DNA from: a virus
Virus record (IMG/VR): IMGVR_UViG_3300045988_133004
Location: 1 to 52,821 of that record
Length of the DNA: 52,821 bases
Strand: one strand, 5' to 3'
The position numbers were made by a program, and so were the translations under genes. Positions 4,623-35,510 of this stretch are shown here, piece after piece (position 1 is the first letter of the stretch; each line of letters begins with the position of its first letter). The notes under the pieces were generated by a model. That model was not told where the DNA came from. It made no database searches and worked only from the letters and a program-made list of their open reading frames with translations.

Positions 4623-5300
4623 ATGGATAAACAAATAAAAAGTTTAGAAAAAGATTTAAAATTGGTTGATGTAGTTAATAATGAAATCGTGGTATCAAGT
4701 AGACAAGTTGCTGAACACTTTGGAAAAGAACACCGTCATGTGCTTGATAGTATTCGTGATATTTTGGCTGCCGAAATTTCGGCTGCGAAATTTTACCATG
4801 AAACCACATTTGAAAATCGTGGTAAACATTATCCAATGTATCTAATGGATAGGGACGGATTTTCACTCTTGGTAATGGGCTTTAGTGGAAAAGAAGCTTT
4901 AAAGTGGAAAATAAAATATATTGAAGCTTTTAACTCTATGGAACAACGACTCAAATTAATTGAACAGCAAGAGTTAGGTCGATTAATGGAACGCATAAGA
5001 AGCAAAGAAGCTCGCAAGACTTTAACAGATGAAATAAAAGAAACTGTTCCAGAAAGTCCGCATAAAAAGTTTATTTATAAACACTATACAGATTTAGCCT
5101 ATAAAGTAGCGTTTGGAATGAATGCAAAACAATTAAGAGAAAAATTAGGACTAAGCAAAACAGATAACATAAGAGACAACTTAAGTAAAGATGAATTAAA
5201 CAAGTTAATAGGTATAGAAAGTTTAATTCGTGGATATTTGAAGCTTGGTAAAGATTATGATAACATTAAAAATTTAACATCAAATTTATTACCTCAATAA
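4623..5300 (+). CDS. rha: Rha family phage regulatory protein (with ORF6C-like C-terminal domain)
   Basis: N-terminal VSSRQVAEHFGKEHRHVLDSIRDIL...MDRDGFSLLVMGFSGKEALKWKIKYIEAFN matches the Rha family signature. Confidence 0.8.
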   Translation: MDKQIKSLEKDLKLVDVVNNEIVVSSRQVAEHFGKEHRHVLDSIRDILAAEISAAKFYHETTFENRGKHYPMYLMDRDGFSLLVMGFSGKEALKWKIKYIEAFNSMEQRLKLIEQQELGRLMERIRSKEARKTLTDEIKETVPESPHKKFIYKHYTDLAYKVAFGMNAKQLREKLGLSKTDNIRDNLSKDELNKLIGIESLIRGYLKLGKDYDNIKNLTSNLLPQ

Positions 5301-30581: not shown

Positions 30582-31304
30582 TTAACATTCATAGGTAAAT
30601 AATTTTTCTATTCTATCAATACTTTTGCTATTTTCTCTATGACCTAGACCGCACTTTATTTCTTTAGACCATACACATTTAAAATCAGAAGGTGCAACAT
30701 ATTCACTTATAAATATTTTATAACCTTCTCTCGCCTTATTTCTGCACCATTCCCAAAATTCATCATGATTAAAATTGCCTGTTATGTAGCCTGTTGAATT
30801 TTTATACGGCGGGTCGCAATATATCAAACTATTACTAGGGATATATAAATCCTTGTAATCTGAATATACAAAATTAACACCTTTTATGTTATTTAATTGC
30901 TTAAGTATGTTGTTAGAACACTCAATCATATAATTTCTTGATTTACTTGCTCCCTCTTTATACTCTTTCCCAGAATATCCATTCATAAACATTCCCCTAT
31001 AGCATAAAGCGGTAAAACCTACCCACCCAACATAATAATCTGGATATTTATCTTTATTTTCTTTAACTTTTAGAGCTTCTTCTTTTGATATACCTATTGG
31101 CGGTTTATATCCTTTTTGAAGTTCTTTGAATAACGCTATCAAATATTTATTATTATCTGCTCCTATTCTTTTACCGCCAACCTTATCAATGACGTTAGCA
31201 CCACCAACGAAAGGCTCAACCCATGTCATATCTTCTTTTCTGTGAGCTTGCATTATTGGTATTATATACTTTGCTATCCTTGATTTACTGCCCATATATC
31301 TCAA
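30582..31304 (-). CDS. dam: DNA N6-adenine methyltransferase, Dam (D12 class) family
   Basis: MRYMGSKSRIAKYI, EPFVGGANV (FxGxG SAM motif), and the catalytic motif CDPPY. Confidence 0.85.
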   Translation of the reverse strand: MRYMGSKSRIAKYIIPIMQAHRKEDMTWVEPFVGGANVIDKVGGKRIGADNNKYLIALFKELQKGYKPPIGISKEEALKVKENKDKYPDYYVGWVGFTALCYRGMFMNGYSGKEYKEGASKSRNYMIECSNNILKQLNNIKGVNFVYSDYKDLYIPSNSLIYCDPPYKNSTGYITGNFNHDEFWEWCRNKAREGYKIFISEYVAPSDFKCVWSKEIKCGLGHRENSKSIDRIEKLFTYEC

Positions 31305-31315
31305 TTATTATCACC

Positions 31316-31570
31316 TTATACCATTTGCTGTTTAATCTTATATCTACCATTGGCGGTCTTAGCACGGAAAATGTAAAACTCCTTGTAACGTCTTTTTACT
31401 ATGAAGTCGAACGCACTTTTAATATCCATGAAGTACCAATTCATCTTTACGTTGTTTCTAACTGTCTTAACTATGAAGAATGTAACCTTACTACCGCAAC
31501 TTATGATGTCGCTTAATTCAATGTTACTCTTAATGTTGCTTAGCAACTTTATCTTTTCTTGTTTCGTCAT
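31316..31570 (-). CDS. hypothetical protein
   Basis: RBS aggtgag 5 nt before ATG at 31570 (MTKQEKIK..). The longer ORF to 31618 lacks an RBS. Confidence 0.5.
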   Translation of the reverse strand: MTKQEKIKLLSNIKSNIELSDIISCGSKVTFFIVKTVRNNVKMNWYFMDIKSAFDFIVKRRYKEFYIFRAKTANGRYKIKQQMV

Positions 31571-31636
31571 GTTCTCACCTACTTTGTATTTTCTACTCAA
31601 TCTCTTGACAACCAACAATCAATCAACTAATGCTGG

Positions 31637-32016
31637 TAGAGAGTTAACTCAAGAAGCGTAGTCTTTGCCCCCGCCACTTGGGGGACGTTAAAGACCACGT
31701 TAAAAGTTCTAATGCTGTATATCGAGCTGAACTCTTTCGCTTCATCTAAACCACCTAAGAGCCTAGGTCTGCCGTTATCTCCACAACTGCCACGTTGTAC
31801 GGTGGTTCGCCTCACTTACCTTATCAATGGTATCACAGGACGGTTTTGTATATGGTGATAAAATCCATATACGCAGTACAAGGAGTTTCACCCTGTACGC
31901 ATCTAGGATTGTCTTACCCTCTAACGGCAACTGACACTGTGGCAAGCAGTGAATTTTATTTTAAGGTGGTTTGAATATCAACACCCGCATTTTTCAAGTT
32001 GCGGTTTAACTCTCTA
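31637..32016 (-). ncRNA. large structured RNA of unknown class (5' leader or stand-alone RNA of the leftward early transcript)
   Basis: 11-bp closing helix 32006-16/31637-47. Nested helices 31966-73/31748-55 and 31921-29/31771-79. Several hairpins. Three G-U pairs valid only on the minus strand. No credible ORF. Visibly more G+C-rich than its surroundings. Confidence 0.6.
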
Positions 32017-32029
32017 TTAACTTAACTAC

Positions 32030-32058
32030 ATTATATCATTATATATTTTTATTGTCAA
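32030..32058 (-). promoter_or_regulatory. consensus SigA promoter, leftward (TTGACA-17-TATAAT)
   Basis: Reverse complement reads ttgacaataaaaatatataatgatataat. Confidence 0.7.
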
Positions 32059-32064
32059 TAGGTA

Positions 32065-32093
32065 TTTACAAATTTATTTTAATGTGCTATAAT
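32065..32093 (+). promoter_or_regulatory. SigA-type promoter, rightward (TTTACA-17-TATAAT, TGn)
   Basis: tttaca 32065-70, tg 32085-86, tataat 32088-93. Confidence 0.6.
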
Positions 32094-32133
32094 AAATTTA
32101 TTCCTTTTATCGCTAAATTTCTATAGAAAGGTG

Positions 32134-32162
32134 TTGACAAATTAAAATTAATATAGTATAAT
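32134..32162 (+). promoter_or_regulatory. consensus SigA promoter, rightward (TTGACA-17-TATAAT)
   Basis: ttgaca 32134-39, tataat 32157-62. Confidence 0.75.
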
Positions 32163-32169
32163 ATAAACA

Positions 32170-32840
32170 TAGACAATTTAATAAAGCATTTATGAGTTTC
32201 TCATAAAAGACCCATGTTTATCTTTATTCAATTTATTTGGGGGCGAAAGCTCCCAATACATAATTTGATATCTTTATCAAGTATACATTATAACCATGTG
32301 TAAACGTTCTAATCAAACCTCATGGAGTGCTGGTTTATTGAGTAGGGTTGTAGTGGGATACTGCTATAATTGAGCTTTTATTTATTGGTAACAGTAAATA
32401 ACAATTGGGTAAACCAAAAGAAGTACAGCACGTACAAATTATAACGCTAGTTAAAACACAAGTTGTATGGCGGTGATAATAAACGACCCTGTGGGTAATA
32501 ATCAGCTATGCCATTTAGCTTACAACTAAATCGAGCTAACTGAAATGTAAAAGTAAACCGTGTGGCTTTGAAGTATAGAAATATACTATAACATATTACT
32601 TGGTTAAAGTAGCATAATAGCCTATTTGATGATAATACGTAATTTGTTAATTACAATTTTATAATCCGAATGATATGTGAAATTTGCAGACAAACATTTC
32701 TGCGTGAGGTAAAAGGGGGCAAGAAGTTATAAGGTAGCTCCTTATAGCTAGGACTTGTCTTTCTCACTGGTTGAATAAGCTAGAAGTTATAAAGAGTAGA
32801 GTGAAAGCTCATAATGTATACTTAATAAAGATATCAAATA
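32170..32840 (+). ncRNA. large ornate structured RNA directly upstream of tRNAs (ROOL/GOLLD-class candidate)
   Basis: ~670 nt without an ORF between a consensus promoter and two tRNAs. GAAA-tetraloop hairpin 32238-55. Nested stems 32461-67/32521-27 with 32467-71/32510-14, and 32704-08/32763-67 enclosing ggcaag/cttgtc and ataagg/ccttat. G-U pairs valid on + only. Confidence 0.55.
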
Positions 32841-32841
32841 A

Positions 32842-32918
32842 ACGTGAGTGGTGGAATAGGCATACACACAAGTCTTAGAAACTTGATTTTGAAGGTTCGA
32901 GTCCTTTCTCACGTACCA
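32842..32918 (+). tRNA. tRNA with anticodon UAG (Leu by anticodon) but a 5-nt variable loop (class I architecture), A73, encoded CCA
   Basis: Hand-folded: acceptor ACGTGAG/CTCACGT, D-stem GTGG/ACAC, anticodon stem CAAGT/ACTTG, loop CTTAGAA, T-arm GAAGG-TTCGAGT-CCTTT. Confidence 0.75.
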
Positions 32919-32921
32919 TAT

Positions 32922-32998
32922 GATGATATAGCCAAACTGGTTAAGGCGAAGGTCTGCAAAACCTTTATTTCTCGGTTCAAGTCCGAGTATCATCTCCA
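32922..32998 (+). tRNA. tRNA-Cys (GCA), U73 discriminator, encoded CCA
   Basis: Hand-folded: acceptor GATGATA/TATCATC, anticodon stem AAGGT/ACCTT, loop CTGCAAA, T-arm CTCGG-TTCAAGT-CCGAG. Confidence 0.85.
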
Positions 32999-33061
32999 CG
33001 AAAGAAATAAGCAAGATACATCTTAACAAAAATAATAACTTTACTACATCTTGCACAATTA

Positions 33062-33095
33062 AAGCACTTAGTATAATGCTAGGTGCTTATTTTGT
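33062..33095 (+). terminator. terminator closing the ncRNA-tRNA transcription unit
   Basis: aagcacttag/ctaggtgctt 10-bp stem (U-G valid on + only), then attttgt. Confidence 0.6.
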
Positions 33096-33474: not shown

Positions 33475-33922
33475 CCAATGGAATACAGAAGAAGGCTTTA
33501 TTAAAATTGAAGGTTGGGCAAAAGATGGCTTAACAAATGAGCAGATAGCCCAAAAAATGGAAATAAACAGAATTACATTATATAATTGGTCTTTAAAAAA
33601 TCCTAAGATTGCAGAAGCTCTCAAAAAAGGAAAAGATGTTATTGATAGAAAAGTTGAGAACTCTCTCTTAAAGCGTGCGTTAGGTTATGAGTATGACGAA
33701 ACGACCACAATCACAGATAGTGAAGGGAACGAAACAACGAAGGTTATAAGAAAGCATGTAATACCAGATACAACGGCTCAAATATTCTGGCTTAAGAACA
33801 GAAAACCTACAGAATGGCGAGATAAACGAGAATATAAAGACAATGAAGCACTTGAAAAACTCGACAAAATTCTTAGTAAAATACCTAATAAATTAGAAAA
33901 AGGTATTAACAAAGATGTTTAA
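33461..33922 (+). CDS. terS: terminase small subunit
   Basis: HTH LTNEQIAQKMEINRITLYNW, ..LLKRALGYEYDE.., IPDTTAQIFWLKNRKPTEWRDK, directly upstream of terL. Confidence 0.8.
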   Translation: MAKYDQWNTEEGFIKIEGWAKDGLTNEQIAQKMEINRITLYNWSLKNPKIAEALKKGKDVIDRKVENSLLKRALGYEYDETTTITDSEGNETTKVIRKHVIPDTTAQIFWLKNRKPTEWRDKREYKDNEALEKLDKILSKIPNKLEKGINKDV

Positions 33923-35510
33923 TTTTAGTAAAAACCAGCTAGAATATTTAAATGACGCTTGCCATAGATGGAACATAAAAAGCGGTGCAGTAAGAAGTGG
34001 AAAGACTTACCTTGATATAGCTGTTGTTATACCATGTAGGATAAGAGCAGTAGCAGGAAAAGAAGGATTAACAGTATTTCTAGGCAATACCAAAGGCACA
34101 ATACAACGTAACGTAATTGAACCGCTCCAGCAAATGTACGGCAAAAATTTAGTTAGTAGTATAAGGGCAGATAATACCGCCACAATATTCGGTGAAAAAG
34201 TTTATTGCTTAGGTGCAAGCAAAATAAATCAAGTAGATGTTTTGCGTGGTATGTCAATCAAGTATTGCTACGGTGATGAAGTTGTTACATGGTGTAAAGA
34301 AGTATTTGAAATGCTTAAATCTCGACTTGACAAGTCTTATAGTCGCTGTGATTTAACATGTAACCCTGATAGTCCTTTGCATTGGTTCAAGGAATTTATT
34401 GATAGTGATGTTGATAAATACTTGCAAGAATACACGATTGATGATAATCCATTCTTACCAGAAGAATTTGTAAGAAACTTGAAAAAAGAATATGAAGGCT
34501 CCGTTTGGTATGATAGGCTTATATTAGGAAAATGGGTACGTGCGGAAGGTCTGGTTTATCCTATGTTTTATAAAGATAAATATTGCTTTACAGAACAGCC
34601 AACAAAAAAATATGAGCAGTATTATATAAGTGCAGACTATGGTATATTAAACCCATTTAGTGCTGGCTTATGGGGTAAATATAAAGGTAAATGGTACAGA
34701 ATTACAGAATATTACCATGATGGACGTAAAACGAATAAACAATACACAGATGAAGAATATTACAATAAACTATTAGACCTTGCAGGTGATTTGCCAATTA
34801 GAAGTATAATTATCGACCCGTCGGCAAGTTCTATGATTGCCACTATTAGAAAGCATGGAAAGTTTAATATTAGGAAAGCAAAAAATGACGTATTAGAAGG
34901 AATTAGAAACACCGCCACCGAATTAAACAAAGGTAACATACTCATAAACTCTAACTGTAAAGCCTTCATTAATGAAATTGAGGGGTATAGTTGGGACAAG
35001 GATAACATAAAAGAGGATAAGCCACTAAAAGAAAACGACCACTGTCTTACAGGTGATACAATAATAAATACAATAAATGGTGATATTCCTATTAAAGATT
35101 TAGTAGGTAAAAGTGGAATTGTTAAAGCTTATGACACATATAACAATAAAGCTGTAACTGCTAAATTTAAAGATGTTAGAGTTACACAGAAAAACGCAAG
35201 AGTATTTGAAGTAAAGCTTAATAGCGGTAAAATAATAAAAGCAACTGCTGAACACCCTATATACACTAAAAGAGGGTGGGTAATGGTAAGAGATTTAAGA
35301 ACAGATGATACTATCTTAGATATAAATATTGGATATTCTTATATCTATAGTATAACTTTTGATAGCTTTCAAGATGTGTATAATATGGAAGTTGAAAAAT
35401 ATCATAACTTTTCTATAAATGGCGGTTTGATAGTTCATAACTGCATGGACGATTTTAGATATTTTGTTAATACAGTAGTAGCACGTGGTAATACGTTCGA
35501 GGTTGCTTAA
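33915..35510 (+). CDS. terL: terminase large subunit, interrupted by a mini-intein
   Basis: Walker A GAVRSGKT, Walker B-like YCYGDEV, nuclease motif ENDH/..MDDFRYF split by the Hint domain. Confidence 0.9.
   Translation: MFNFSKNQLEYLNDACHRWNIKSGAVRSGKTYLDIAVVIPCRIRAVAGKEGLTVFLGNTKGTIQRNVIEPLQQMYGKNLVSSIRADNTATIFGEKVYCLGASKINQVDVLRGMSIKYCYGDEVVTWCKEVFEMLKSRLDKSYSRCDLTCNPDSPLHWFKEFIDSDVDKYLQEYTIDDNPFLPEEFVRNLKKEYEGSVWYDRLILGKWVRAEGLVYPMFYKDKYCFTEQPTKKYEQYYISADYGILNPFSAGLWGKYKGKWYRITEYYHDGRKTNKQYTDEEYYNKLLDLAGDLPIRSIIIDPSASSMIATIRKHGKFNIRKAKNDVLEGIRNTATELNKGNILINSNCKAFINEIEGYSWDKDNIKEDKPLKENDHCLTGDTIINTINGDIPIKDLVGKSGIVKAYDTYNNKAVTAKFKDVRVTQKNARVFEVKLNSGKIIKATAEHPIYTKRGWVMVRDLRTDDTILDINIGYSYIYSITFDSFQDVYNMEVEKYHNFSINGGLIVHNCMDDFRYFVNTVVARGNTFEVA
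35043..35441 (+). mobile_element. mini-intein (133 aa, Hint domain, no homing-endonuclease domain) in terL
   Basis: Block A CLTGDT, block B TAEHP, blocks F/G VYNMEVEKYHNFSINGGLIVHN followed by +1 Cys. Confidence 0.85.

Follow-up and report, generated by a model that had tools for sequence, protein, structure and literature searches.

A divergent, enlarged phage RNA assigned to the orphan EGFOA family at the head of a leftward early transcript

The window analysed here, 52,821 nt of viral DNA (record IMGVR_UViG_3300045988_133004), contains a strong minus-strand promoter followed by several hundred nucleotides that precede any convincing gene. An earlier note, made from the sequence alone, had described this segment as a large structured RNA of unknown class, either a leader possibly controlling the small open reading frame (ORF) and the Dam methylase gene downstream or a stand-alone phage RNA arranged back-to-back with a second, ornate RNA. 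The locus thus raises the questions of which family the RNA belongs to and whether it serves the genes behind it or acts on its own. As judged by sequence homology, its core (31907-31749; all coordinates of the RNA refer to the minus strand) is the EGFOA motif, and the RNA is a divergent, enlarged member of the orphan EGFOA family (RF02955). The label 'unknown class' did not hold, as the Rfam match, homology to an established member and a profile all led to this known family, of which the RNA of the window is a new, divergent, phage-borne member.

Assignment to the EGFOA family

The EGFOA family is represented by a single Rfam model (RF02955; Weinberg et al. 2017, PMC5737381). In a permissive Rfam scan of 31200-32300, EGFOA was the sole match with an E-value below 1, at 31749-31861(-), with a score of 27.1 bits (E = 0.013) compared to a gathering score of 37.7. 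The gathering score is a threshold on one covariance model and not a biological trait of the family. None of the families in Rfam 15 reached its gathering score within 31200-32269, the first base of the neighbouring ROOL RNA being 32270, and no match was obtained with the Rfam 15 models for ROOL, GOLLD, OLE, HEARO, raiA, tmRNA, RNase P, T-box and riboswitches, in line with the earlier failure to find RNase P, tmRNA or T-box motifs. Scanning the full window with Rfam gave three matches, ROOL and two tRNA genes, all on the plus strand (Table 1). The Rfam check of the minus strand that the earlier note had proposed returned a family in the permissive scan, at a score below its threshold.

The low score is due to an insertion. 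When all sequences were anchored on ACCGTCCT, two extra hairpins (approximately 62 nt) were located in the window between the EGFOA 5' element (UCCUAGAUG, 31908-31900) and ACCGUCCUG. The Rfam model has no positions for this insertion, which splits the motif, and model positions 1-18 consequently align to the wrong window bases. From these comparisons we concluded that RNAs with the insertion are to be placed in an enlarged EGFOA subclass at the edge of the Rfam model.

Homology did not depend on that score. The RNA of locus L031 is a bona fide EGFOA RNA by Rfam (61.6 bits), and an nhmmer comparison aligned the window RNA with it over approximately 330 nt, from 31985 to 31654, with an E-value of 2e-9; the window thus significantly matches members above the Rfam threshold. 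A profile hidden Markov model (HMM) built from 11 relatives, leaving out the window, gave a single match in the 52.8 kb, at 31906-31747(-), with an E-value of 4.1e-12 and spanning the insertion. This match settles both homology and strand and, together with the covarying helices described below, bears out the earlier note, which took the segment for a large structured RNA transcribed leftward.

The window RNA also displays the structural features of the family: the single-stranded ACCGUCCU(G) element, present as ACCGUCCUGU at 31844-31835 and including ACCGUCCUG; a hairpin followed by (G)AGGC; and a helix P1 that encloses two hairpins. The loop of the second of these, AUAACGGCAGACCUAGG, is a form of GUAAAGCUAGACCUGGG; it matches RUAAMGGCAGACCURGG and is pseudoknotted with an upstream CCNAG (CCUAG:CUAGG in the window). 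This pseudoknot, which has no annotation in the covariance model, was deduced from the Rfam consensus and covariation. EGFOA RNAs have been described from unusually long gene-free regions (bioRxiv 10.64898/2026.07.01.735769, citing Weinberg 2017), and the window RNA likewise lies beside other RNA genes in a 1.5-kb stretch (31571-33075) with no credible ORF, its homologs being found in intergenic regions of 1.2-1.5 kb. It differs from known members by the 62-nt two-hairpin insertion between the pseudoknot strand and ACCGUCCUG, by a length of approximately 385 nt that includes outer modules and a closing helix, compared to 108 positions in the Rfam model and less than 200 nt in the constructs studied by cryo-electron microscopy (cryo-EM), and by its location in a phage at the head of an early operon.

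Conserved fold and outer modules

Plain MAFFT alignments (A1, A3, A5) misregister the helices; the structure rests instead on a hand alignment (A4) of 24 distinct sequences, cut by element, N-padded and kept in register, in which row L001 is one column off (MAFFT). Across 53 pairs in seven helices of A4, 98.5% of the cells were paired compared to 59.9% in shuffles, a percentage that is inflated because A4 was fitted by hand to the structure. Pairs varying on both sides numbered 41 out of 53, which was attained by 0 of 500 shuffles, and the covariation score was 0.404 compared to 0.083 in shuffles and 0.014-0.057 with partners slid. The real covariation signal is that different types of pair occur at positions held in place by invariant anchors on either side. 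The seven supported helices are the pseudoknot, HI1, HI2, HD, P1, HE and HF (Table 1), and compensatory changes keep helices in homologs of at least seven lineages. The pseudoknot is CCCAG:CUGGG in most relatives, CCUAG:CUAGG in six sequences and UCUCG:CGAGA in the L308 group, its central pair being C-G in 18 sequences and U-A in six. The stems of the two inserted hairpins covary in five lineages while their loops remain alike (UGMAAYU and UUYAUC).

These data bear directly on the idea that the structure is fortuitous or that the region encodes protein. The region is more stably folded than shuffled sequence: the minimum free energy (MFE) fold of -125.8 kcal/mol has a z-score of -3.76, with 0 of 100 shuffles equally stable. 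The plus strand gives -3.77, so that folding energy alone does not choose the strand, and this equality of the strands could be taken to favour a chance structure. ORFs of 56-62 amino acids (aa) exist in the region as well. However, the longest (31627-31815, 62 aa) starts with GTG and lacks a ribosome-binding site (RBS), as expected from its earlier dismissal as spurious, and the L031 copy contains no ORF of at least 60 aa. Collecting homologs, another check put forward in the earlier note, thus revealed compensatory changes in helices of the proposed region and no coding support in L031. The helices conserved by such changes and the restriction of the profile match to the minus strand effectively refute the chance and coding readings, which we regard as barely credible. 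A fold in which P1 was forced lay only 4.3 kcal/mol above the MFE, the energy of the pseudoknot not being counted.

Table 1. Positions of the RNA elements and of neighbouring features in the window
Feature	Position	Strand	Description
Sigma-70 promoter	32030..32058	(-)	-35 TTGACA 32058-32053; 17-nt spacer with extended TG; -10 TATAAT 32035-32030
Whole EGFOA-class RNA	31637..32022	(-)	~385 nt; 5' module, core with two-hairpin insertion, 3' module
Closing helix, 5' strand	32006..32016	(-)	UAGAGAGUUAA; pairs with 31647-31637
5' module	31935..32004	(-)	Hairpins and AAAAUAA motif
5' module hairpin CCGCA/UGCGG	32004-32000 with 31989-31985	(-)	
5' module possible hairpin GGUG/CACC	31985-31982 with 31968-31965	(-)	
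Upstream near-copy of P1 5' strand	31964..31972	(-)	AAACCACCU; can pair with AGGUGGUUU 31756-31748
5' module AAAAUAA motif	31962-31956	(-)	
5' module hairpin CACUG/CAGUG	31951-31947 with 31939-31935	(-)	
Conserved element	31917..31928	(-)	GCCGUUAGAGGG; 5' of Rfam model
Pseudoknot 5' strand CCUAG	31903..31907	(-)	Pairs with CUAGG 31766-31762; covariation helix 1
Inserted hairpins HI1 and HI2	31848..31898	(-)	Covariation helices 2 and 3
HI1	31898-31891 with 31883-31876	(-)	GUACAGGG/CCUUGUAC; loop UGAAACU
HI2	31872-31865 with 31855-31848	(-)	GUAUAUGG/CCAUAUAC; loop AUUUUAUCA
Near-invariant single-stranded element	31835..31844	(-)	ACCGUCCUGU; Rfam alignment and relatives
Hairpin HD UACC/GGUA	31808..31832 (31832-31829 with 31820-31817)	(-)	Loop AUUGAUAA, then AGUGAGGCG; covariation helix 4
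EGFOA P1 domain	31749..31807	(-)	Rfam alignment; covariation helices 5-7
P1 AACCACC/GGUGGUU	31807-31801 with 31755-31749	(-)	Encloses HE and HF
Hairpin HE ACAAC/GUUGU	31798-31794 with 31787-31783	(-)	Inside P1
Hairpin HF GGAG/CUCU	31782-31779 with 31761-31758	(-)	17-nt loop AUAACGGCAGACCUAGG holds pseudoknot 3' strand 31766-31762
3' module	31653..31743	(-)	Outer stem GAAGC/GCUUC, 31743-31739 with 31657-31653
3' module inner hairpin	within GAAGC/GCUUC	(-)	AAAGAGUUC...GAACUUUU
3' module long hairpin	31699-31690 with 31666-31657	(-)	CGUGGUCUUU/AAAGACUACG; cap CCCCC/GGGGG 31684-31680 with 31672-31668
Closing helix, 3' strand	31637..31647	(-)	UUAACUCUCUA; pairs with 32016-32006
Spacer between RNA and first ORF	31571..31636	(-)	66 nt; includes RBS AGGUGAG 31580-31574
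Second consensus promoter	32134-32162	(+)	12/12; upstream of ROOL RNA
ROOL RNA	32270-32829	(+)	Full Rfam scan, 298 bits
tRNA-Leu(UAG)	32842-32918	(+)	Full Rfam scan of window
tRNA-Cys(GCA)	32922-32998	(+)	Full Rfam scan of window

The core is flanked by a 5' and a 3' module. The local hairpins listed in the earlier note were all present (CCGCA/TGCGG, CACTG/CAGTG, GTACAGGG/CCTTGTAC, GTATATGG/CCATATAC), as was the stem CGTGGTCTTT/AAAGACTACG with its CCCCC/GGGGG cap. The order of hairpin, AAAAUAA, hairpin and CCGUUAGAGGG in the 5' module recurs in L031 and the L308 group, with the stem GGUG/CACC changed to GGCG/CGCU in L031 and to AGUG/CACU in the L308 group. A CCGUYAGAGGG version of the GCCGUUAGAGGG element occurs in L031, L258, the L138 group and the L308 group. 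In the 3' module, the hairpins are followed by a pyrimidine-rich tail; an equivalent G/C-rich hairpin and a CUUCY tail were found in most large-form lineages (L031, L138, L115, L264 and L308). The conservation of both modules indicates that the natural RNA extends well past the 108-position Rfam model.

The closing helix reported earlier is present as a perfect 11-bp duplex of TAGAGAGTTAA (32016-32006) with TTAACTCTCTA (31647-31637). Taken alone it is modestly unlikely, its score being reached in 44 of 1000 shuffles. The homologous L031 strand, UAGAAAGGUUU, pairs with GAGCCUUUC downstream of the L031 3' hairpin, and relative to the window three positions are changed on both sides. Because of these three compensatory positions, the sequences make the closing helix plausibly real. 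RNAduplex-style searches for the helix in other lineages were matched by 35-112 of 200 shuffles and had no statistical power.

For the two long-range helices of the earlier note the complementarity proved correct, 1-2 nt away from the positions given there, but their membership of the conserved fold did not. The upstream AAACCACC (31972-31965) is complementary to GGTGGTTT (31755-31748) and would thereby use the 3' strand of P1, so that this helix competes with P1, which is present throughout the family. The AAACCACCT/AGGTGGTTT pairing alone is modestly unlikely (38 of 1000 shuffles reach its score). The upstream AAACCACCU segment may instead form the local GGUG..CACC hairpin, which has the counterparts named above. 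L031 contains the upstream duplication of the P1 strand and a similar long-range pairing with a bulge, whereas the L308 group lacks that pairing. Taken together, the sequences do not support a place for the AAACCACC/GGTGGTTT helix in the conserved fold. The duplicated P1 5' strand itself (31964-31972 compared to 31801-31807, AACCACC in P1) might represent an alternative conformer, a strand-exchange site or a coincidence. The second proposed helix, TGCCGTTA (31929-31922) with TAACGGCA (31777-31770), was rejected: no covariation was observed, the upstream G being constant while its partner is A or C, with a G-A mismatch in four lineages (L031, L258, L138 and L308).

A further complementarity was noticed between the HI2 loop AUUUUAUCA (31856-31864) and the HD loop AUUGAUAA (31821-31828). 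It comprises 5-6 nt in every insertion-bearing lineage: UUAUCA:UGAUAA in the window, CAUCAC:GUGAUG in L115, UCAUC:GAUGA in the L308 group and UAGAG:CUCUA in L264. HD loops of lineages without the insertion measure 3-4 nt. The pairing is a candidate tertiary, kissing or oligomerisation contact; the assignment is tentative because the conserved GUGAU linker (GUGAUA in the window, 31832-31837) is an equally good partner of the HI2 loop. No kissing partner that was consistent across lineages was found for the HI1 and HE loops.

Transcription, selection and genomic context

The minus-strand promoter noted earlier matches the sigma-70 consensus at 12 of 12 positions, with a predicted transcription start at approximately 32022. 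The first ATG preceded by an RBS (AGGTGAG, 31580-31574) is at 31570, resulting in a leader of approximately 452 nt, nicely corresponding to the earlier estimate of 450 nt. The leftward early transcript carries the RNA first, then an 84-aa ORF, Dam, Erf and the replication genes. As neither a terminator nor a good promoter was detected in the 66-nt spacer between the end of the RNA (31637) and the ATG at 31570, the RNA and the 84-aa ORF are probably co-transcribed in the window phage. The G+C content of the RNA region is 43.5% compared to 30.5% for the whole window.

On the opposite strand, the ROOL gene lies 250 nt away, back-to-back with the EGFOA-class RNA; this is the ornate RNA of the earlier note, whose alternative of a stand-alone phage RNA in such an arrangement fits the data better than its leader alternative. 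The gene-free stretch 31571-33075 holds the EGFOA-class RNA, ROOL and two tRNA genes and can be viewed as a 1.5-kb RNA-only island under divergent promoters. The window represents a Firmicutes-type phage and encodes an SPP1-like portal, Erf, a DnaD-like initiator, a DnaB helicase and a D12-class Dam methylase. Its large terminase subunit (33915-35510, +) contains a mini-intein, the insert starting with CLTGDT and finishing with VHNC (Pfam Intein_splicing, residues 391-468, 38.9 bits with a cutoff of 35.8; HINT domain, residues 411-509).

Near-identical copies of the window phage were found at L075/L108/L295, L226 and L260, with ROOL also present in L260 and L226. Over 4.8 kb, L260 shares 95.5% identity with the window. 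Between 31539 and 32035, a block that begins at the -10 of the promoter and includes the first 11 codons of the 84-aa ORF, no substitution occurred and the only difference was a GG inserted into a run of G (31668). The flanking features differ by 1.6-8.5%: dam by 1.8%, the 84-aa ORF by 6.3%, the inter-promoter spacer by 8.5%, ROOL by 1.6%, and the 132-aa ORF and the small and large terminase subunits by 5-6.5%. At approximately 4% divergence, about 18 changes would be expected in the constant block. Its constancy reflects either strong selection or recent exchange.

More distant relatives were collected by scanning public viral contigs, genomes and metagenomes for the two most conserved EGFOA strings and by rescanning the viral contigs with a subclass-specific pattern. 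Beyond the phage copies and L031/L212, approximately 35 further EGFOA-like loci were obtained. The two-hairpin insertion is common to two Selenomonas lineages (L138/L288/L270/L254 and L115/L243/L285), to L264 and to the L308 group, a viral lineage of 67-kb contigs (L308, L311, L312, L315, L317, L319 and L320), several of which share sample 3300045988 with the twin contig of the window. Within the insertion-bearing relatives, L138 (38.7 bits) and L254 (37.7) reach the Rfam gathering score, which is missed by L115, L264 and the L308 group. Fourteen loci are of a short form, and L001 alone among them reaches the threshold. The remaining 13, from metagenomes and viruses (L229, L272, L202, L265, L251, L074, L246, L225, L191, L203, L245, L257 and L064), display a CCCAG pseudoknot strand, ACCGUCCUG, a hairpin, AGGUAGAC, P1 and a GUAAAGGCAGACCUGGG loop; the first inner hairpin is missing in most of them, L064 having one, and their helices covary with those of the family.

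Searches of GenBank phages, as the earlier note had advised, gave no match, either by BLASTN with the RNA region or by megablast with the surrounding 8-kb segment, and the 84-aa ORF used as a probe retrieved the same phage only. Phages related by their large terminase subunit carried neither EGFOA nor ROOL at the 13 loci inspected, indicating that the RNA is accessory cargo.

The neighbours of the homologs vary. At L031, the EGFOA RNA shares one consensus promoter with a tRNA and an 84-nt tmRNA-like element, and a second consensus promoter precedes the next genes. The tmRNA-like element (5131-5214, +; 76.3 bits with the Rfam tmRNA model) consists of tRNA-like ends only (GGGG...CUCCACCA), and since 13 nt replace approximately 304 model positions it has no tag reading frame. 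In L312 (4925-8027) the RNA is flanked by a Rad52-like gene and a ParM/ALP-like gene, and in L285 (6525-9337) by ParA and a PD-(D/E)XK (transposase-like) gene, while in L138 (3949-5253) a TnpB/Cas12f-like gene is located nearby. Large-form EGFOA RNAs at these three loci thus adjoin genes typical of mobile elements.

The ParM/ALP-like and ParA neighbours, together with the position of the window RNA between divergent transcription units, are what could be expected of a replication or partition element at a hub of divergent promoters in mobile elements, be it an origin, a primer RNA or the transcript of a par site. However, covariation keeps RNA pairs, including G-U, on one strand, the initiator and helicase genes of the window are 15-18 kb distant, and the L031 RNA is part of a tRNA operon. 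We therefore consider a replication or partition element very improbable.

A free-standing RNA particle or a leader

In the window the RNA is positioned as a 5' untranslated region, with no terminator or good promoter before the first ATG, and as such could be a cis-acting riboswitch, attenuator or protein-binding operator for the 84-aa ORF, Dam and the early operon. The spacer and RBS region, free of substitutions like the RNA itself, are compatible with this, and by inspection the upstream AAACCACCU has two alternative partners, the 3' strand of P1 and, along 5 nt, the RBS (AGGUG). It shares with riboswitch and T-box leaders a long structured region before an operon and a strong promoter. 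In contrast to such leaders, it has no Rfam cis-regulatory match and no expression platform, as neither a terminator/antiterminator pair nor a conserved RBS-sequestering helix was found, and no conserved set of genes lies downstream of the homologs, which are followed by unrelated ones (a Rad52-like gene, a gene for a PD-(D/E)XK nuclease, or an ORF of unassigned function). In Rfam, EGFOA is classed as gene/sRNA, and the family occurs in gene-free regions. Thus, a leader controlling the small ORF and Dam, as the earlier note had considered, is unlikely. The varied neighbours, the RNA operon of L031, with a tRNA ahead of the RNA and a separate promoter for the genes behind it, and the absence from terminase relatives speak for an RNA that acts autonomously and not for a cis-regulator of one particular gene, and we concluded that a free-standing RNA is the more likely of the two.

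As to what such an RNA does, two EGFOA RNAs have been reported from cryo-EM to assemble, protein-free, into a trimer/hexamer and a strand-exchanged dimer (bioRxiv 10.64898/2026.07.01.735769), and RNA-only homo-oligomeric cages are known from ROOL and GOLLD, two RNAs likewise linked to phages and tRNA genes (PMC12286853). Like ROOL (RF03087) and GOLLD, the window RNA belongs to the orphan ornate RNAs of phages and prophages, RNAs that often lie beside tRNA genes. It differs by its smaller size and by the absence of a match of 31637-32022 to their Rfam models, and the oligomers reported for EGFOA are open trimers and dimers, whereas those RNAs form closed cages.

Our preferred explanation, which we hold to be likely, is an early-transcribed EGFOA-class RNA of approximately 385 nt with a covariation-supported fold that acts as an autonomous self-assembling particle beside ROOL. 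Host RNA polymerase would transcribe it from the consensus extended -10 promoter as the first element of the leftward early transcript. In the fold supported by covariation, P1 encloses its two hairpins, the 17-nt second loop forms a 5-bp pseudoknot with CCUAG (31907-31903), and ACCGUCCUG is left single-stranded. The inserted hairpins would present their conserved loops, one of them complementary to the HD loop, and the 11-bp closing helix would draw the 5' and 3' modules together. The RNA would then act as a free-standing folded particle rather than a riboswitch-like leader. Family and fold are demonstrated by the sequence comparisons; by analogy with the two other EGFOA RNAs, we infer that homo-oligomers are probably assembled through the conserved loops and that the particle may serve the phage early in infection, alongside the cage-forming ROOL.

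Several points weigh against this explanation. The EGFOA gathering score was not reached, and the covariation was counted on a hand-fitted alignment. To our knowledge, no EGFOA RNA has a known biological function. In the window phage the RNA is physically a 5' leader, and the 66-nt spacer behind it is as conserved as the RNA itself, with no substitution compared to L260, so that a role in cis keeps a small probability. Adjacency to ROOL was seen only in the lineage of the window phage. Finally, oligomerisation of EGFOA was reported for other, shorter constructs only, and in a preprint (bioRxiv 10.64898/2026.07.01.735769).

A bolder proposal is that EGFOA and ROOL form a functional two-RNA module of self-assembling, protein-free particles, expressed from back-to-back promoters at the start of infection. 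We consider this a long shot. If true, the EGFOA RNA might be released from the leader of the early mRNA, and its open oligomer could serve the ROOL cage as adaptor or as cargo; alternatively, both RNAs could sequester a host factor or a defence sensor.

What is new here is modest and comprises an architecture larger than that of the model, a candidate contact between loops, the pairing with ROOL and the observation that most relatives escape the Rfam model, the current version of which misses most of those gathered here, short-form and large-form. EGFOA RNAs have recently become of interest owing to their self-assembly. For this orphan family, the locus provides a concrete genetic system in which function can be approached, with a defined phage, promoter and strand, a position at the head of an early operon, and a ROOL gene 250 nt off.

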